Assembly (NCBI RefSeq): GCF_000023965.1
Contig: NC_013202.1
Location: 2,640,001-2,672,000, forward strand
Direction: 5' to 3'
Source of the DNA: Halomicrobium mukohataei DSM 12286
GTDB taxonomy: Archaea > Halobacteriota > Halobacteria > Halobacteriales > Haloarculaceae
DNA length: 32,000 nucleotides
The position numbers and the translations under genes were made by a program. Below, piece by piece: positions 2,830 through 29,147 of the stretch. The notes beneath the pieces are model-generated. The model was not told the origin of the DNA and ran no database searches. It worked only from the letters and a program-made list of their open reading frames with translations. The first letter of the stretch is position 1; each line of letters starts with the position of its first letter.

Positions 2830-3762
2830 ATGCGCGTCTCGGTCGTGATCTGTCTGCACACGATGGACCGCTTCGATCACTTCGTCGAGGCGGTCGAGAG
2901 CGTGTTCGCTGGGACGTACGACGACGTGGAACTCGTGTTGGTCTCGGACGGGAGCGACGCGGTCTGTGGGGCCATCGAGGACCGCTTCGGCGACCGAGCG
3001 GACGTACAGATCGTCTGCAACGAGGAGAACCGCGGGCTCGCAGTCAGTCGAAACCGCGGCCTCGACGCCGCCAGCGGGGACGTAGTCGCGTTTACCGACG
3101 ACGACGTGATCGCCGACGAGCGGTGGCTCGAAGCGCTGGTCTCGGTGTACGAGGAGCGCGACGTGCCGGCGGTCGGGGGGCGACTCGTCCCGGAGTGGGT
3201 CGCCGACGAGCCCGACTATCTGCCCGCCGAGTTCTACTGGCTGATCGGCGTGATGCCACCGACGTTCGGACCGGCCGACGACGCCTCGGTCGGCGGCGAG
3301 GTACGCAACACCTACGGCGGGAACATGTCGTTCCTGCGGTCGGTCCTCGAAGACCTCGGCGGCTTCGAGCCCGAGATCGGCGGTCGGACCGGCGACAAGA
3401 ACCTCCAGGGCGAAGAGACGGAGCTCTGTGCGCGACTCCAGACCGAGTACGGCCGCGGGATGTACTACACGCCCGACGCGATCGTCGCCCACAAGATCTT
3501 CGACTACCGGACGGAGCTCGGGTGGCTCCTCGATCGGGCATTCTGGCAGGGCTACTCCAAACGCGGGCTCGAAGTGCTCGTGCCGGAGACCGACGGCACG
3601 GAGTCGGACTACCTCGCCACGTTGCTGTTCGTCGCGACGCCGCGGCGGCTCCGCGGCCTCCTCACGGAGCCGTCGCTCGCGGCCGTCGTCCAGCTCGCGA
3701 TGCTGTTCGTGTTCACGGGCGTCGTAGGGCTGGGCTATCTCTACGGGGCGGTGAAGTGGTGA
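2830..3762 (+). CDS. GT2-family (GT-A fold) glycosyltransferase with C-terminal membrane anchor, Agl pathway candidate
   Basis: Track ORF 2746..3762 trimmed to ATG 2830 (MRVSVVICLHTMDRF...). In-frame ATGs at 2791 and 2803 are alternatives. Motifs: LVSDGSD, TDDDV (DxD), and two hydrophobic helices at the C-terminus (LATLLFVA..., VVQLAMLFVFTGVVGLGYLYG). Confidence 0.8.
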   Translation: MRVSVVICLHTMDRFDHFVEAVESVFAGTYDDVELVLVSDGSDAVCGAIEDRFGDRADVQIVCNEENRGLAVSRNRGLDAASGDVVAFTDDDVIADERWLEALVSVYEERDVPAVGGRLVPEWVADEPDYLPAEFYWLIGVMPPTFGPADDASVGGEVRNTYGGNMSFLRSVLEDLGGFEPEIGGRTGDKNLQGEETELCARLQTEYGRGMYYTPDAIVAHKIFDYRTELGWLLDRAFWQGYSKRGLEVLVPETDGTESDYLATLLFVATPRRLRGLLTEPSLAAVVQLAMLFVFTGVVGLGYLYGAVKW

Positions 3763-3764
3763 CC

Positions 3765-4931
3765 ATGTCCGAGGACGGCCTCCCCGGCGTCTGTGTCGTC
3801 ACCCACCCGCTCGCGTCGGCCGGCGAGAACGCTACCCGGAGCTTGCTGGAGATCCTCGCCGCGGTGACGACGGTGTCGCTCGTCACTGCTGACCTGCCGG
3901 CCGACTCCGAGATCCGAGACCGCCACGAGCTGATCGAGCTCACGGAGCGAGGAGCCGGCCAGTCGAACGTCGCCGTCGCGGCCGCCCGATTCCTCCTGAA
4001 CCAGCTCCGGATGTGCCGGGCGCTCGTCGGCAGAGACGAGGCGGTGGTGCTGTTCTACGGGGCGACCGCGTACCTCGCGCCGATCCTGTTCGCACGACTG
4101 CTGGGCAAGCGCGTCCTCGTCGAGCCACGCGGCGACGTGCCCCTGACGCTCCGATTACACTGGGAACAGTCGCTGCCGGCCGTCCTCGCGCGGACGCTCG
4201 CGGGACTGGTCCGGGCGCTGGAACGGTCGGGCTTCGCGGCCGCAGACGGCGTCGTCACGTACACGCCAGCGATGGCGGCCCAGCTCGGGCTCGACCCACA
4301 GCGCCAGCGCGTCTATCCCAACGGCGCACGGTTCGTCCACACCGACCGGTTCGACGTGGAGACGCCCCACGCAGAGCGCGAGCGAGTGGTGGGCTTTCTC
4401 GGCCGCCTCGACGAGGAGAAGGGGATCAGAACGCTCGCGAGCGTCGCACGGTCGCTCCCGCCAGAGTACACGTTCCGGTTCGTCGGTGACGGCGGACTGC
4501 GCCCCTGGCTCGAACGGGAGCTCGCCGAGGAGATCGCCGACGGGCGCGTCGAGGTGACCGGGTGGGTCGACCACGACGACGTGCCCCGACAGCTGAACGA
4601 CCTCGAACTGCTGGTGTTGCCGTCGGACCCGACCGAGGGGCTCCCGACGACGATCCTCGAAGCGCTCGCCTGCGGAACGCCGGTGTACGCGACGCCGGTC
4701 TCCGGCGTGCCGGACGTGGTTCGGGACGGCGAGACCGGCTTCCACATCGCGGATCGCGACCCTGCGACGCTGCGTGACGGGATCGAGTCGATTCTCCGTC
4801 GCGACGACCTCGACGAGATCAGCGCCCGCGGACGGACGCTGATCGAGGACGAGTACAGCTTCGCGGCGGCCTGCGAGCGGTACCGGGGGATCCTCAGAGC
4901 GGTCGTCGACGATCGAGCAGACCGGGCGTAA
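3765..4931 (+). CDS. GT4-family (GT-B fold) glycosyltransferase
   Basis: This is the 3' part of track ORF 2739..4931. The upstream 342 codons are Arg-rich and overlap the GT2 gene in another frame, so I start at ATG 3765, 2 nt after the GT2 stop (operon-like). Motifs: GFLGRLDEEKG and EGLPTTILEALACGTPVYATPVSGVPDVV (the E-x7-E region). Confidence 0.8.
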   Translation: MSEDGLPGVCVVTHPLASAGENATRSLLEILAAVTTVSLVTADLPADSEIRDRHELIELTERGAGQSNVAVAAARFLLNQLRMCRALVGRDEAVVLFYGATAYLAPILFARLLGKRVLVEPRGDVPLTLRLHWEQSLPAVLARTLAGLVRALERSGFAAADGVVTYTPAMAAQLGLDPQRQRVYPNGARFVHTDRFDVETPHAERERVVGFLGRLDEEKGIRTLASVARSLPPEYTFRFVGDGGLRPWLERELAEEIADGRVEVTGWVDHDDVPRQLNDLELLVLPSDPTEGLPTTILEALACGTPVYATPVSGVPDVVRDGETGFHIADRDPATLRDGIESILRRDDLDEISARGRTLIEDEYSFAAACERYRGILRAVVDDRADRA

Positions 4932-5011
4932 GCGCCCGTCGAGACGGGGCCAGTCCGGGACAGATCGACCCATCCGAAAGGTACTTTGGACGCGTCGGAG
5001 TGGGTCCGACA

Positions 5012-6433
<1,422 letters not shown>

Positions 6434-9223: not shown

Positions 9224-9302
9224 ATACTGCCGGCTGTCACTGTTTCACGATATTCGCGAGATGGGGTCGCGAAATTCGTCACAGACGGACAGTCGGTAGT
9301 AA
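9224..9302 (+). repeat. Family B nested-hairpin repeat, copy B1
   Basis: Outer arms TACTGCCGGCTGTC (9225-9238) and GACAGTCGGTAGTA (9288-9301) pair over 14 bp, two of them G:T. Inner stem is TTCGCGA/TCGCGAA (9253-9259 / 9267-9273). The 5' arm ATACTGCCGGCTGTCAC recurs at 16279 and, reverse-complemented, at 10665-10681. Confidence 0.7.
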
Positions 9303-11414: not shown

Positions 11415-11469
11415 CGACGCTACACTCGACTTTCCGACGCTCGCCGCGACAGACCGCGGACGTGGCGTC

Positions 11470-11555
11470 TCATACGGACGGTTGTAGGCGTTTACCCAGT
11501 CGACCGCACGACGGCGTGCGGTCGATCTGGTAAAGACCTACAACTTTCCGTATCA
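11470..11555 (+). mobile_element. Family A 80-bp palindromic MITE-like element, copy A1, with TCA/TCA flanking duplication
   Basis: Core 11473-11552 is identical to 28986-29065 and 79/80 identical to 13062-13141. Terminal inverted repeats are TACGGA/TCCGTA. The flanking trinucleotide TCA occurs at 11470-11472 and at 11553-11555; the latter is the stop codon of the minus-strand dehydrogenase gene. Confidence 0.75.
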
Positions 11556-12449
11556 GTCGTCCGACGAGAGCGAGATGCCGGTCTGTTCGGCCAGCGGCTC
11601 GACGACGGCAGCCATGTCTCGGTCGCCGAGGCCGGCCGCTCGGGCACCGCTGAACAGTTCGCGGGCCGCTGCGGTGAGTTGCATCGGGACGCGGGCGTCG
11701 CCCGCCGCGTCCAGCGCCAGGTCCAGGTCCTTGAACTGGTAGTCGACGGGGAACCGCGAGTCGTAGTCGTCCGTTCGGATCTGCTGGCCCTTCGCCGAGA
11801 ACAGCGGCGAGTCGAGCGCGCCGTTCTCGACGACTTCGAGCATGTCCTCGATTTCGAGTGCCTGGTTCGCGCCGAAGGTCAGCGCCTCGGCGAGCGCGCC
11901 CATGGCGGTACCCAACAGGAGATTGACGAACAGCTTCATGCTGGTTCCCTGCCCGACCCCGCCACACCGGACGACGGGGTCACACATGGCCGATAGCACC
12001 GGCTCGACGTCGTCGATCACGTCGCCGTCGCCGCCGGCGAGTCCGACGAGCGTCCCCTCGCGGGCCGGGCCGACCGTCCCCGAGACGGGGCAGTCGAGAA
12101 AGCGGCCACCGTGCTCGCGGACGGCCTCGGCCGCCGCCAGCGTCTCGTCGCGACCGATCGTGCTCATCTGGACGACCGTCGTCGTCTCGTCTAGCCCCGC
12201 CAGGATACCGAAGTCCCGTTCGAGGACCTCGCCGACGGCCGTGCCGTCGGTGACGATCAGACAGACCACGTCGACGCGCTCGGTGAGGTGTTTCGGCGAG
12301 TCGGCGACGCTGACGCCCGCCTCGGCGAAGGGGCGCTCTCGCTCGGTCGTCCGGTTGTACACGGTGAGGTCGAACCCCGCGTCGTCGAGGTTCCAGGCCA
12401 TCGGCGCACCCATCGCACCGAGGCCGACGAAACCGACAGATCGTGCCAT
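11553..12449 (-). CDS. NAD(P)-dependent beta-hydroxyacid dehydrogenase (3-hydroxyisobutyrate / 6-phosphogluconate dehydrogenase-like family)
   Basis: Track ORF 11553..12587 trimmed to ATG 12449 (MARSVGFVGLGAMGAPMAWNL, a GxGxxG Rossmann motif). It is 298 aa. Confidence 0.8.
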   Translation of the reverse strand: MARSVGFVGLGAMGAPMAWNLDDAGFDLTVYNRTTERERPFAEAGVSVADSPKHLTERVDVVCLIVTDGTAVGEVLERDFGILAGLDETTTVVQMSTIGRDETLAAAEAVREHGGRFLDCPVSGTVGPAREGTLVGLAGGDGDVIDDVEPVLSAMCDPVVRCGGVGQGTSMKLFVNLLLGTAMGALAEALTFGANQALEIEDMLEVVENGALDSPLFSAKGQQIRTDDYDSRFPVDYQFKDLDLALDAAGDARVPMQLTAAARELFSGARAAGLGDRDMAAVVEPLAEQTGISLSSDD

Positions 12450-12516
12450 GTCACCGGGTTCGGTCGCCGGGGACTTCAAAACAGGGCCGGGAAAGAGTTT
12501 TGAGCCCCGCGCGAGC

Positions 12517-13044
12517 ATGTCAACTCGAATGATGGACCAGAGCCACGACCGGCAGCTGCGGGCGGAGCTGTATCTACGGGGGGACACCTACGGGACCTAC
12601 GACGCCCAGCGGGACGTGTTACAGCGGGTCCACGAACTCGAAACCGAGAACGTGATCGACGAGTCGAGCGTCGCCGACGAGTGGCAGCGCATCCGGACCC
12701 TGAACGAGGATCGCCGCGACGGCGCACTTGCCACCTACGACGAGTTCGCGGCCTGGGCACAGCGAAACGACTACGCGCTAGAGCCCGCGTTCGAACGACG
12801 GGCGCGGTCCTACGTCGGCCTCAGTCGGGTCGACGACGTCGTCGTCTTCCCGGTCGTCTCGCTGGCGATCTACGAGCGCGACCGGCTCCAGGCGGTCTTT
12901 CCGTGCTCGGACGGCGAGCGAAACTACCGCGTCCAGGACTGCCTGGACGCGTTCGAACGCGGCGACGAGCGGTGGCTCACGCAGTTCGACACGGTGACCG
13001 TCGACCGCACCGCGCCGCGGCTCGAACCGGGACTGGACGCCTGA
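12517..13044 (+). CDS. Conserved-looking acidic hypothetical protein
   Basis: 3' part of track ORF 11842..13044; the upstream part is antisense to the dehydrogenase gene. Starts at ATG 12517 (MSTRMMDQSHDRQLRAELYLRGDTYGTYDAQRDVLQRVHELE); ATGs at 12529 and 12532 are alternatives. Acidic, halophile-like composition. I recognise no motif. Confidence 0.55.
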   Translation: MSTRMMDQSHDRQLRAELYLRGDTYGTYDAQRDVLQRVHELETENVIDESSVADEWQRIRTLNEDRRDGALATYDEFAAWAQRNDYALEPAFERRARSYVGLSRVDDVVVFPVVSLAIYERDRLQAVFPCSDGERNYRVQDCLDAFERGDERWLTQFDTVTVDRTAPRLEPGLDA

Positions 13045-13058
13045 TCTACAGGAGCTAC

Positions 13059-13144
13059 TGATACGGATGGTTGTAGGCGTTTACCCAGTCGACCGCACGA
13101 CGGCGTGCGGTCGATCTGGTAAAGACCTACAACTTTCCGTATGA
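13059..13144 (+). mobile_element. Family A MITE-like element, copy A2, with TGA/TGA flanking duplication
   Basis: Core is 13062-13141, with a single difference from A1/A3 (T at 13068 instead of C, in an unpaired position). TGA occurs at 13059-13061 and 13142-13144. Confidence 0.75.
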
Positions 13145-15409: not shown

Positions 15410-16279
15410 ATGGCGCGCGTGCTCTGTGCCGGCCACGTCAACTGGGACGTAACGCTGCAGGTCGATCGGCTTCCGGGCCCGGACGGCGAGGCCCAGATCG
15501 TCGACCAGTGCCAGTCCGGCGGCGGGAGCGCGTCGAACGTCGCGGTCCTGCTGGCGGGCCTGGACGTGGAGACGACGCTGCTGGGCAGCGTCGGTGCCGA
15601 CGAACACGGCTGGCTGGCGGCGCGCGAACTCGATCGGGCGGGCGTCGAGACGGTGCTGGTCGAGGCCGACGACGCGACCGCGGTGAAGTACCTCGTCGTC
15701 GACGAGGGCGGCGAGGTGATGGTGCTGGGCAACGACGGCGCGAACGAGGCGTTCACGGCCGACGACCTCGAACCGGGGACCCTCGACACGACCGATCGGC
15801 TCCACCTGACGAGCCAGCGGCCGGCGACCGCCGTCGCGCTCGCCCGGCGGGCGACCGAAGCGGGCTGTCCAGTGAGCTTCGATCCGGGCCGACGGCTCGA
15901 CGAGCGCGACTACGAGCCTGTGCTCGCCGCGGTCGATCTGGTCTTTCTGAATCAGCGCGAGGCCGACATCGCCGCCGAGGCCGGGCTGCTGTCCGGCGTC
16001 GATCGCGTCGTGGTCAAGCACGGCGCGGGCGGGGCCGAGGTTCGGACCGACGGCGAGACGATCAGTCACCCCGGATTCGCCGTCGATCCGGTCGACACGA
16101 CTGGTGCCGGCGACGCGTTCGCGGCGGGGTTTCTCGCCGCTAGCCAGTCCGGTAGCGACGAGTACGCGCTGGCGGTGGGCAACGCCTGTGGCGCACTGGC
16201 AGCGAGAACCACCGGGGCGCGACTCCACGCGGAGTGGCGCGACGTCGAGGCGCTGCTCGACATCGGGCCGGGAGAGTGA
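15410..16279 (+). CDS. PfkB/ribokinase-family sugar(-phosphate) kinase; candidate ribose-1-phosphate kinase
   Basis: Track ORF 15332..16279 trimmed to ATG 15410 (MARVLCAGHVNWDV). PfkB signatures GGGSASNVA and DTTGAGDAFAAGFL are present. The specific substrate is inferred only from clustering with the R15P isomerase and RuBisCO. Confidence 0.8.
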   Translation: MARVLCAGHVNWDVTLQVDRLPGPDGEAQIVDQCQSGGGSASNVAVLLAGLDVETTLLGSVGADEHGWLAARELDRAGVETVLVEADDATAVKYLVVDEGGEVMVLGNDGANEAFTADDLEPGTLDTTDRLHLTSQRPATAVALARRATEAGCPVSFDPGRRLDERDYEPVLAAVDLVFLNQREADIAAEAGLLSGVDRVVVKHGAGGAEVRTDGETISHPGFAVDPVDTTGAGDAFAAGFLAASQSGSDEYALAVGNACGALAARTTGARLHAEWRDVEALLDIGPGE

Positions 16280-16357
16280 TACTGCCGGCTGTAACTTCGT
16301 TCAGATATTCGCCACCCTGGGGTGGCGAAATCCGTGACAGATTTACAGCCGGTATAG
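16279..16357 (+). repeat. Family B nested-hairpin repeat, copy B2
   Basis: Starts at the last base of the kinase stop codon (TGA 16277-16279). Outer stem CCGGCTGTAA/TTACAGCCGG (16285-16294 / 16343-16352). Inner perfect 9-bp stem TTCGCCACC/GGTGGCGAA (16308-16316 / 16321-16329), loop CTGG. Confidence 0.7.
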
Positions 16358-16362
16358 TAACA

Positions 16363-16426
16363 ATTGAAACGATTTACACACCGATCGCACTGCAGTCGTG
16401 CGATCGGGTGTGCATTGATTTTCAAT
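16363..16426. terminator. Long GC-rich hairpin with flanking T-tracts; candidate bidirectional terminator between convergent kinase genes
   Basis: Stem CACACCGATCGCAC (16377-16390), loop TGCAGTC, then GTGCGATCGGGTGTG (16398-16412), giving 14 bp with one bulge. Outer pairing is ATTGAAA/TTTCAAT (16363-16369 / 16420-16426). It is followed by GATTTTC on the plus strand and CGTTTC on the minus strand. Confidence 0.5.
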
Positions 16427-16443
16427 GGCTACTATAGTATGAG

Positions 16444-28190: not shown

Positions 28191-28985
28191 ATGGACCGCA
28201 GGCTCGTCGCCGTTCTCACGACGGTACTCCTGGCGGGCTGTGGCGGCATGGCGACCTCCGACGGCGGCACCGAGACGCTCACCCCGGCCCCGGTTCCGGA
28301 GCCGGCCGACGCGACGACAGAGACGGGGGCACTCCCGCCGGGCGTCACCGGGAACGGCGTCGCGAACGTCGACCGGCTCACCGCCGCACATCGGCGCGCG
28401 ACGGCCGACCAGTCGTACACCCTCACGACGGAGCGGTCGACGAGCCGCCAGAGGGCCAACGAGACCCTCGACACGCGACAGGTCGTCCAGGTAGCCAACG
28501 AGTCGACGTACGCCTACTGGACGAACGAGCGCGTCGTCTGGGACGAGAGCCGGGCTCGCTACTTCGACAACTACTCCGAGTTTCAGGGCCCCGACGGCCG
28601 GTACGTCCGCTACACCGAACTGGACGGCGAGACCCGACAGCGCCAACTCGGCTCGACGGCCCCGCGTCCCGAACTCGACAGGGAGGCGACGGTCGCCATC
28701 GAGCGGTTCCTGACCATCGACAACGCGACCGTCAGCGTCCTGCGAGACGACGGCCAGCGCCACTACGAACTACGGGGCGAGCAGCGAACCTTCGTCACCG
28801 AGCGCCCGATCCGGAACGTCTCGGTCAGCGCGGTGATCAGACACGACGGGCTCGTGCGGTCGCTCTCGGTGCGCTACTGGCGGGGCGACAGCGACTGGGG
28901 CGAGTTCGTTCGCTACTCGTTCGCGTACGAGCGGCTCGGGACGACGACCGTCGAGAAACCGTCGTGGGTCCGGACGAGCGACTGA
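28191..28985 (+). CDS. Secreted lipoprotein, function unknown
   Basis: MDRRLVAVLTTVLLAGCGG has a signal peptide with lipobox (LAGC), followed by a Thr/Pro-rich linker. It is 264 aa. ACTTTTGA box about 26 nt upstream. Confidence 0.7.
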   Translation: MDRRLVAVLTTVLLAGCGGMATSDGGTETLTPAPVPEPADATTETGALPPGVTGNGVANVDRLTAAHRRATADQSYTLTTERSTSRQRANETLDTRQVVQVANESTYAYWTNERVVWDESRARYFDNYSEFQGPDGRYVRYTELDGETRQRQLGSTAPRPELDREATVAIERFLTIDNATVSVLRDDGQRHYELRGEQRTFVTERPIRNVSVSAVIRHDGLVRSLSVRYWRGDSDWGEFVRYSFAYERLGTTTVEKPSWVRTSD

Positions 28986-29068
28986 TACGGACGGTTGTAG
29001 GCGTTTACCCAGTCGACCGCACGACGGCGTGCGGTCGATCTGGTAAAGACCTACAACTTTCCGTATGA
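28983..29068 (+). mobile_element. Family A MITE-like element, copy A3, with TGA/TGA flanking duplication
   Basis: Core 28986-29065 is identical to A1. TGA at 28983-28985 is the lipoprotein stop codon. TGA at 29066-29068 abuts repeat B3. Confidence 0.75.
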
Positions 29069-29147
29069 TACCGCCAGCCGTACCTTCGTGCGGGTATTCG
29101 CCACCCCGGGGTGGCAACGTTCGTCACGGCCGTCCAGCGGGCAGTAC
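29068..29147 (+). repeat. Family B nested-hairpin repeat, copy B3 (diverged)
   Basis: ATACCGCCAGCCGTACCTTCGTGCGGGTATTCGCCACCCCGGGGTGGCAACGTTCGTCACGGCCGTCCAGCGGGCAGTA aligns with B2 along its length. Inner stem is GCCACC/GGTGGC (29100-29105 / 29110-29115). Outer arms pair at 8 of 10 positions. Confidence 0.6.

Follow-up and report, generated by a model that had tools for sequence, protein, structure and literature searches.

An 80-nt hairpin MITE family of Halomicrobium that duplicates T(G/C)A target sites and often inserts on stop codons

The 80-nt element that occurs three times in the 32,000-nt stretch of Halomicrobium mukohataei DSM 12286 analysed here (the window) belongs to a real MITE family, which is called family A in the following. 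The family stands out by its exact insertion on stop codons, which are regenerated, and by uniformly 80-nt whole-element hairpins that span genera. Five of the six features that define the MITE class were found, namely a short non-coding sequence, terminal inverted repeats, a duplication of fixed length, dispersed copies and an empty site. Very probably its mobility depends on a DDE-type transposase that acts in trans and cleaves T(G/C)A targets with a 3-nt stagger. An earlier note, made from the letters of the window, had already proposed a non-autonomous, MITE-like element, and this proposal is borne out by extra copies with matching flanks, by their random orientation and by an orthologous as well as a paralogous empty site. 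By exact matching, the proteins encoded in the window correspond to assembly GCA_009217585.1 (CP045142.1) of H. mukohataei and are the same in DSM 12286 and JP60.

Copies, sequence and fold of the element

Three near-identical copies of an 80-mer had been described in the earlier note, and exactly these were recovered from the window. They differ by 0-1 mismatch and all lie on the plus strand. In dinucleotide shuffles of the window (n=100) the expected number of copies was 0, as against the 3 observed. The copies are:

11473 to 11552, plus strand: family A copy A1, 80-nt hairpin MITE; exact match with 0 mismatches; ends TACGGACGGTTGTAGG / CCTACAACTTTCCGTA; fold z = -9
13062 to 13141, plus strand: family A copy A2; 1 mismatch, C>T at 13068
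28986 to 29065, plus strand: family A copy A3; 0 mismatches

The 80 nt contain no ORF and form a hairpin over their whole length. The element begins with TACGGA(C)GGTTGTAGG and finishes with CCTACAAC(T)TTCCGTA, and the inverted repeats extend to the very ends. A single hairpin is predicted on either strand, with -63.7 and -62.5 kcal/mol and z = -9.1 and -10.6. The one long, near-perfect hairpin of the earlier note therefore stands, but its count of about 36 pairs does not, since 33 pairs within the element were counted in the minimum-energy structure, with arm pairing over 33 bp. The sole difference between the copies, C>T at 13068, falls on the unpaired seventh base of the element in the predicted fold, as had been stated.

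A1 and A2 are only 1.6 kb apart, which could suggest a local segmental duplication or an assembly artefact. The sequences flanking the copies are however unrelated, the same copies are present in independent assemblies and read sets, and dozens of copies are found at unrelated loci, also in other genera. A duplication or artefact has practically no probability left and is already refuted.

Flanking trinucleotides and empty sites

The trinucleotides next to the three copies, together with the members of two other element families (B and C) in the window, are as follows:

9225 to 9301, plus strand: family B copy B1, 77 nt, with degenerate flanks
11470 to 11472, no strand assigned: distal copy of the A1 target-site duplication (TCA; TGA on the minus strand), from direct reading and the pattern in 27 copies
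11553 to 11555, minus strand: proximal copy of the A1 duplication, which is the TGA stop of the dehydrogenase gene (11553-12518; Pfam NAD_binding_2/NAD_binding_11)
13059 to 13061, no strand assigned: left TGA of the A2 duplication, intergenic, 15 nt past the stop of the HTH_63 gene
13142 to 13144, no strand assigned: right TGA of the A2 duplication, from direct reading
16280 to 16439, plus strand: family B copy B2, on the TGA stop (16277-16279) of a PfkB kinase gene; the other TGA is at 16440-16442
16355 to 16434: family C element, 80-nt hairpin MITE with TA duplication, interrupting B2
28983 to 28985, plus strand: left TGA of the A3 duplication, which is the stop codon of the DUF7537 gene (28191-28985; gene call/Pfam)
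29066 to 29068, no strand assigned: right TGA of the A3 duplication, which doubles as the left flank of the adjoining element B3
29069 to 29146, plus strand: family B copy B3, 78-nt hairpin MITE with ends TACCGCCAGCCGTACC...GCGGGCAGTA and flanks TGA/CGA, older

A1 is flanked by TCA/TCA, and both A2 and A3 are flanked by TGA/TGA. The flanks were counted in a set of 27 copies, which comprises the near-identical family A copies and closer relatives. Every one of the 27 carries the same trinucleotide on both sides, TGA/TGA or TCA/TCA in 26 cases and TAA/TAA in one, and the central base of the duplicated trinucleotide is accordingly G or C in 26/27. Matching TGA/TCA flanks are also present in 10 of 12 metagenome relatives.

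Empty sites with a single TGA, which the earlier note had proposed to look for in related strains, do exist. At the 3' end of a cupin gene the empty site of H. mukohataei reads ...GACGCGGAG TGA AGCGTCCGGG (GAG-TGA-AGCG), and the orthologous filled site of H. katesii reads ...GACGCCGAG TGA, the 80-nt element, TGA AGCGTCCGGG (GAG-TGA-element-TGA-AGCG). A paralogous empty site is provided by the intact family C element of the window (reverse strand of 16355-16434), with ...AATCGTT TCA ATTGTTACTATA. In H. katesii a family A copy is nested inside a family C element, and there the sequence is ...AATCGTT TCA, element A, TCA ATTGTTACTATA. Since the orthologous and the paralogous empty sites have the trinucleotide only once, the flanks of family A are a 3-bp target-site duplication at T(G/C)A. 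The claim that every copy is bordered by identical trinucleotides, as a 3-bp TNA duplication, is thus upheld by 27 matched copies of 27 and by the empty sites. A TA duplication as in IS630-like elements was considered for family A and rejected, because the empty sites show TGA and no extra TA.

The orientation of the element relative to the TGA-bearing strand is random (14:13), and in the element's own frame about half of the flanks are TGA/TGA and about half TCA/TCA. It follows from this split, and from the orientation in either direction, that the flank is not part of the element, and a strand-specific insertion of the IS200/IS605 type is ruled out. Such a derivative (PATE), or a REP/REPIN-like hairpin, would be moved as ssDNA by a Y1 (HUH) transposase and would insert 3' of a TGA without duplication, the second TGA being the 3' end of the element itself. 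Several observations would fit. The element folds as a hairpin, IS1341/TnpB elements and PATEs abound in haloarchaea (PMC3119063), and a TnpB gene is located on the H. mukohataei plasmid. In addition the extended target described below is asymmetric, and the apex is more conserved than the ends among the relatives, though these were retrieved by the apex. PATEs and other IS200/IS605 derivatives, as well as REP/REPIN elements, resemble family A insofar as they contain hairpins, lack a transposase, lie beside a short specific target and are abundant in haloarchaea. They have however no terminal inverted repeats, no duplication and a fixed orientation 3' of the target, and family A differs in all three points: it has true terminal inverted repeats up to the very ends, both flanks switch together to TAA in one copy, and the 14:13 orientation is at odds with the single configuration that a strand-specific mechanism with an element-borne 3' end predicts. 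The IS200/IS605-type reading is largely refuted by the orientation data and is barely credible.

The target is longer than three bases. Position -2 is an A in 20/27 copies and position -1 a C in 18/27, which yields ACTGA. AC precedes TGA in 14/27 copies but in only 3/51 harmless background T(G/C)A sites sampled from 21 kb of the same genome, although some of the 27 target sites are not independent of each other, being insertions into copies of other repeats. The hint at a longer ACTGA target in the earlier note therefore holds. The mirror-image GT 3' of TGA is seen in only 4/27 copies, so that the extended target is one-sided, and such a one-sided preference is not obviously predicted by a symmetric transposase dimer.

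A specific target would also be expected for a small integrative element that is inserted by a serine or tyrosine site-specific recombinase, with TGA as the crossover core between a circular junction TCCGTA-TGA-TACGGA and a chromosomal TGA. Indeed the abutted ends would flank a 3-bp spacer as a perfect inverted-repeat site, insertion depends on the target sequence, and different family members occupy the same sites. Only about 5 nt are however common to the target sites, which lack arm-like binding sites, no recombinase gene is associated with any copy, and in one copy with these ends the core is TAA. Crossover cores comprise 2 bp in serine recombinases and 6-8 bp in tyrosine recombinases, which also counts against this explanation. 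We consider a recombinase highly improbable as the source of the flanks.

Families B and C and wider relatives

The ends of family B (TACTGCCGGCTGTA) are similar to those of family A and the flanks are TGA; copy B3 is present in H. katesii. Relatives also occur on plasmids of Haloarcula rara, H. mukohataei and Natribaculum breve. The apex and metagenome scans added 80-nt hairpins from Halobaculum gomorrense, Halogeometricum limi, Halorientalis salina, Halosimplex and several hypersaline MAGs. These hairpins have the apex CGACCGCACGACGGCGTGCGGTCG in common, a conservation that is partly an ascertainment effect because they were retrieved by apex search. Their arms differ (e.g. TAGGGTCGGTTGGAAG, TAGTGATTGCGACGAG), and most of them have TGA or TCA on both sides. 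Elements with the 16-nt ends of the A type and another interior and apex were seen too (L092:4328-4406, H. mukohataei plasmid).

The arms covary across genera. Double-sided changes were found at 19/33 pairs, 79% of the cells in the arm alignment are paired in comparison to 32-39% with a slid partner, and the covariation score is 0.30 versus 0.14 in shuffles. All members of families A, B and C and all relatives are 77-80 nt long and fully palindromic.

Stop codons and neighbouring genes

The earlier note had claimed that the element landed on stop codons and regenerated them. That is true for A1 and A3. It is not true for A2, where the upstream gene is HTH_63 (12529-13044) with its stop at 13042-13044, that is 15 nt upstream of the insertion; a 126-aa ORF that ends at 13061 is a spurious extension and not a real gene. 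The gene next to A1 encodes a 3-hydroxyisobutyrate-type dehydrogenase on the minus strand (Pfam), and the 321-aa gene call is identical among other H. mukohataei assemblies. Its C-terminus ...SDD* with the codons GAC GAC TGA is the same in a metagenome relative and in Halomicrobium sp. LC1Hm. As this end is conserved in the orthologues, the insertion of A1 left the protein unchanged.

Counted over the whole set, a true stop codon coincides exactly with the duplicated trinucleotide in 10/27 copies, a stop-codon copy being defined by a TGA (TAA in one relative, L016) that ends a long ORF with GC3 >=0.86. This share of 37% compares to roughly 22% expected if all non-disruptive T(G/C)A sites were equal, an expectation taken from one 21-kb sample, and the enrichment is modest. 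The orientation of the stop-codon copies relative to the gene is 6:4. The association with stop codons is real but mostly a by-product, since TGA is the target of the element and no harm comes from insertions that restore a stop.

Some sites are occupied by different elements in different strains. At the stop codon of the dehydrogenase gene H. mukohataei has a family A element and strain LC1Hm one of family B, flanked by TGA/TGA, and at the A2 site LC1Hm has a different A-type subfamily in opposite orientation. A3 and B3 are missing from LC1Hm.

Copy number and age of the family

When the contigs of one genome per species were scanned for the 18-nt apex, the matches listed included many 8-kb tiles of H. 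katesii DSM 19301; about two thirds of the tiles listed were chance hits to GC-rich bacteria. A BLAST search of the retrieved loci with the 80-mer gave at least 17 H. katesii copies with 92.5-100% identity. Two further copies lie at the sites orthologous to A2 and A3, which brings H. katesii to at least 19 near-identical copies, as compared to at least 4 family A copies in H. mukohataei; all these copy numbers are lower bounds. The further copies with matching flanks that the earlier note had suggested to search for are thus at hand in H. katesii. Contigs assembled from short reads break 22-25 nt into the element, as expected of a multi-copy repeat.

In the regions compared, the identity between H. 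katesii and H. mukohataei is 97-98% (2-3% difference). The orthologues of A2 and A3 in H. katesii show 3/80 differences and 2/80 substitutions, respectively, and a copy after a CbiX gene, which is orthologous in both species, shows 4/80 differences. Orthologous copies hence diverge at about the genomic rate, that is by neutral decay, and selection on the element sequence was rejected for this reason. The H. katesii dehydrogenase site, whose spacer is 83 nt shorter, was considered as an empty site of A1 and rejected. A 14-nt remnant of the element (TACGGAAAGTTGTA) is present there after an 83-nt deletion between GGTCT microhomologies, and the agreement of 83 with 80+3 is coincidental.

With A2 and A3 at orthologous sites and a remnant of A1 in H. 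katesii, the three copies of the window predate the split of H. mukohataei and H. katesii. The cupin insertion is specific for one lineage, so the activity went on around or after that split. The earlier statement that near-identity implies recent mobility is therefore only partly right, as A1-A3 are older than the split of lineages that are 2-3% apart. The copies differ from the consensus by roughly 1-2 substitutions each, and their sequences would be consistent with a burst of family A near the time of the split.

These comparisons also bear on a selected host signal in RNA or DNA, such as a 3'-end stabiliser or terminator at gene ends, for which the spread would be secondary. The hairpin is very stable and directly follows the stop codon at 10/27 sites, compensatory changes keep the pairing across genera, and elements recur at the same gene ends in different lineages, all of which such a signal could explain. 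Against it, the orientation relative to the gene is not biased (6:4), many copies lie away from genes or inside other MITEs, and the divergence is about that of the genome with changes spread over the whole element. A1 was furthermore largely deleted in H. katesii without being replaced, sites are empty in relatives, and no Rfam family is matched at the gathering score. The Rfam 15 search of the window gave 0 matches at this score, and with a relaxed threshold only chance-level microRNA hairpin models (16-26 bits as against cut-offs of 62-100). It is very doubtful that the family is a host signal. The structured 3'-end RNA that the earlier note had named as an alternative is likewise not needed and finds no support in the orientation, the neutral-looking divergence or the Rfam search.

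Search for a partner transposase

The window ORFs tested contained no Pfam transposase domain, which agrees with the earlier note, according to which the window contains no transposase. That note had also suggested to look elsewhere for an IS with TACGGA... ends, and none was detected in the tiles, in 150 kb of plasmid, in viral contigs or in the metagenome hits. More generally, no autonomous element with matching ends was found in the window, in about 45 haloarchaeal 8-kb tiles, in the viral contigs or among the metagenome hits. In the annotation of 150 kb of H. mukohataei plasmid no transposase with matching ends was found, only the TnpB gene and many MITEs of family B and of A variants. Among the tiles there is no repeated DNA >250 bp. 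Two scans of the viral contigs with 14-mer ends gave essentially chance hits, and a metagenome scan with the left-arm pattern, which was aimed at an IS sharing the arm, gave only MITEs and chance hits.

A search of all retrieved loci for pairs of ends with TNA flanks 300-4000 bp apart yielded no partner IS, only pairs of MITEs and two odd loci. One of these, in H. katesii (L044), is a low-GC island in which MITEs enclose a PemK toxin, and the other is a MITE that carries a 340-nt cargo in its loop (L393). The PemK ORF runs into an element copy.

The palindrome over the whole element in every subfamily is not explained by a simple deletion derivative that joins end to end. As no partner IS was found, all subfamilies are palindromic with 77-80 nt, the target preference extends to one side only and different subfamilies occupy the same stop codons, one may speculate that families A, B and C and their relatives form a single Halobacteria-wide superfamily of about 80-bp whole-element hairpins. 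Its enzyme would not yet be recognised as their transposase and might act on the extruded hairpin or cruciform; the extrusion would bring the ends of so short an element together. The asymmetric preference for ACTGA would make stop codons habitual landing sites, and the widely shared apex CGACCGCACGACGGCGTGCGGTCG might serve as a second functional module, to which a protein binds or which was co-opted as a hairpin at mRNA 3' ends. We regard such a superfamily as rather unlikely.

Comparison with known systems

By its behaviour family A appears closest to MITEs of the IS1031 group of the IS5 family. Members of this group insert at 5'-TNA-3' with an exclusive 3-bp direct repeat, and insertion at TGA is documented (PMC12016507). 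MITEs of the group are, like family A, short, non-coding, bounded by inverted repeats and flanked by a 3-bp TNA repeat, and they are presumably moved in trans. The ends of family A (TACGGACGGTTGTAGG, TAC...) are however unlike the end GAACCTGTCTAGTATCT of ISLrh (GAACCTG..., PMC12016507), the single end of the group that was compared. Further differences are the strong G/C middle base and the hairpin over the whole element, and neither nearby nor with these ends was an IS5-type transposase found. Placing family A in the IS5/IS1031 group, or linking it to Harbinger-type transposases, would be an analogy that the TNA duplication suggests.

Tourist MITEs of the PIF-Harbinger type are very short, have inverted-repeat ends and a 3-bp duplication with outer T and A, and show a preference for the proximity of genes. 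Their duplication is TAA or TTA, in contrast to TGA or TCA in 26/27 family A copies, and they are eukaryotic without a sequence relationship to family A. The PHIS superfamily is described in PMC4482050.

In haloarchaea, the SMRs of Haloquadratum walsbyi (e.g. HqIRS41 with 79-80 bp) have inverted repeats that match no known transposon, and their mobilisation was called enigmatic (Dyall-Smith et al. 2011, PMC3119063). Insertion into other mobile elements is frequent among them, and target duplications were reported to be absent, while the MITEs of Haloquadratum have duplications of 6-10 bp and known parent IS elements (PMC3119063). Family A shares with HqIRS41 the host group, the size class and prominent orphan inverted repeats, a likeness by description and not by sequence, and differs from SMRs of this type by its 3-bp duplication.

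Correia elements of Neisseria and ERIC sequences are likewise short and gene-adjacent, have inverted repeats and a short duplication of fixed length (TA for Correia), and are co-transcribed and form RNA hairpins. Their target (TA), their length (about 100-155 bp) and their host domain set them apart from family A, to which they have no sequence relationship. A large survey lists many uncharacterised MITEs in Haloarculaceae (PMC11602168). In our literature searches no description of family A or of its stop-codon habit was found.

Proposed mechanism

Family A would accordingly be an 80-bp non-coding DNA transposon whose arms are its inverted repeats, hence the whole element forms one hairpin. 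A DDE-type transposase encoded elsewhere, of the cut-and-paste or copy-paste kind, would mobilise it in trans and make 3-nt staggered cuts at T(G/C)A, preferably at (A)C-TGA. Repair of the stagger would then duplicate the trinucleotide on both sides of the element. TGA is a common stop codon in the GC-rich host archaeon, and an insertion on a stop keeps an intact TGA after the last sense codon, so that it has no cost for the host and such insertions survive. Because harmless insertions survive, copies accumulate exactly where genes end, within short intergenic spacers and in other MITEs. The copies on stop codons would thereafter sit in the 3' untranslated region as a strong stem-loop. Both the DDE class of the enzyme and any effect of this hairpin on the host mRNA are steps that we infer.

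Significance of the family

Target choice and repair duplication together make the insertions harmless: the TGA is duplicated, the stop is kept, and the element comes to lie right after the coding sequence. In practical terms, the 80-nt repeats break short-read assemblies of haloarchaea, and element copies create spurious ORF extensions, as in the 126-aa ORF that ends at 13061 and in the PemK ORF. The presence or absence of copies provides usable strain-level markers within Halomicrobium. The strong hairpins mark the 3' ends of genes and could affect mRNA ends. The mobilising enzyme is a concrete problem for the biology of archaeal mobile elements, one that echoes the "enigmatic" SMRs of Haloquadratum.

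Hairpin families B and C

Besides the 80-nt family A hairpin, the window contains two further families of hairpin MITEs, which are located as follows.

9225-9301: family B (B1), family length 77-78 nt, ends TACTGCCGGCTGTA...
16280-16439: family B (B2), same family length and ends
29069-29146: family B (B3), same family length and ends
16355-16434: family C, 80 nt, ends TAGTAACAATTGAAA..., TA duplication

The TGA stop codon of the PfkB kinase gene is occupied by B2, whose right end houses the nested family C element. The third family A copy, A3 (28986-29065), and B3 immediately adjoin each other and have one TGA in common. Since the family B copies of the window are only about 75% alike, family B is older than family A. 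Family C is present in H. katesii in several copies with 90-98% identity, one of which bears a family A insertion.

Apical loops, islands and inserts

The 4-nt apical loop reads either ACGG or CCGT (alignment A2, which comprises relatives of the element; window 11510-11515). In the same alignment the loop of the Halomicrobium subfamily is inverted relative to the arms in comparison to most other subfamilies, so that the tip of the palindrome exists in flip/flop-like states.

A low-GC island of H. katesii (L044, KB905378.1 528001-536000, about 3478-5640 of the locus) is bounded by MITE ends and MITE copies. It encodes a PemK/MazF-like toxin ORF, the 3' end of which extends into a family A copy, and an ORF of 358 aa without a Pfam match. 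The island may represent cargo enclosed by MITEs, or else a hot spot for insertions. On the metagenome contig Ga0136562_103720 (L393, 3170-3583) about 340 nt of foreign DNA sits precisely within the apical loop of a TAGGG-type 80-nt element whose flanks are TGA/TGA. Within this inserted DNA there are separate inverted repeats and an ORF of 71 aa that, judged by eye, may encode a ribbon-helix-helix-like protein.

Decay, strain differences and ORF ends

The region orthologous to window 11455-11555, which includes copy A1 (11473-11552), is found in H. katesii at L339 3460-3490. There only 14 nt of A1 are left, the rest having been lost when 83 nt were deleted between a pair of GGTCT repeats, which is an example of a decay route for these elements. 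The length of this site mimics an empty site, but it was rejected as such because the 14-nt remnant persists.

At the cupin spacer of H. katesii (L031, about 5965-6010) AT-rich sequence begins about 40 nt downstream of the insertion site and is missing from H. mukohataei L343. This is a second strain difference there, unrelated to the element insertion.

12681-13061, plus strand: ORF of 126 aa, ending at the left TGA of copy A2 (13062-13141)

This ORF has no Pfam match and lies in a different frame over part of HTH_63, the real gene here; it illustrates that the duplicated TGAs make misleading ORF ends in this GC-rich genome.

Reuse of target sites

The counterpart sites of A1 and A2 were located in Halomicrobium sp. 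LC1Hm (CP044129.1, L345 3400-3490 and 1810-1900). While the dehydrogenase stop codon holds A1 in the window, it is occupied in LC1Hm by a family B element flanked by TGA/TGA, and the A2 site harbors a different A-type subfamily in opposite orientation. As different elements reside at the same sites in the two genomes, these are independent hits on the same targets.
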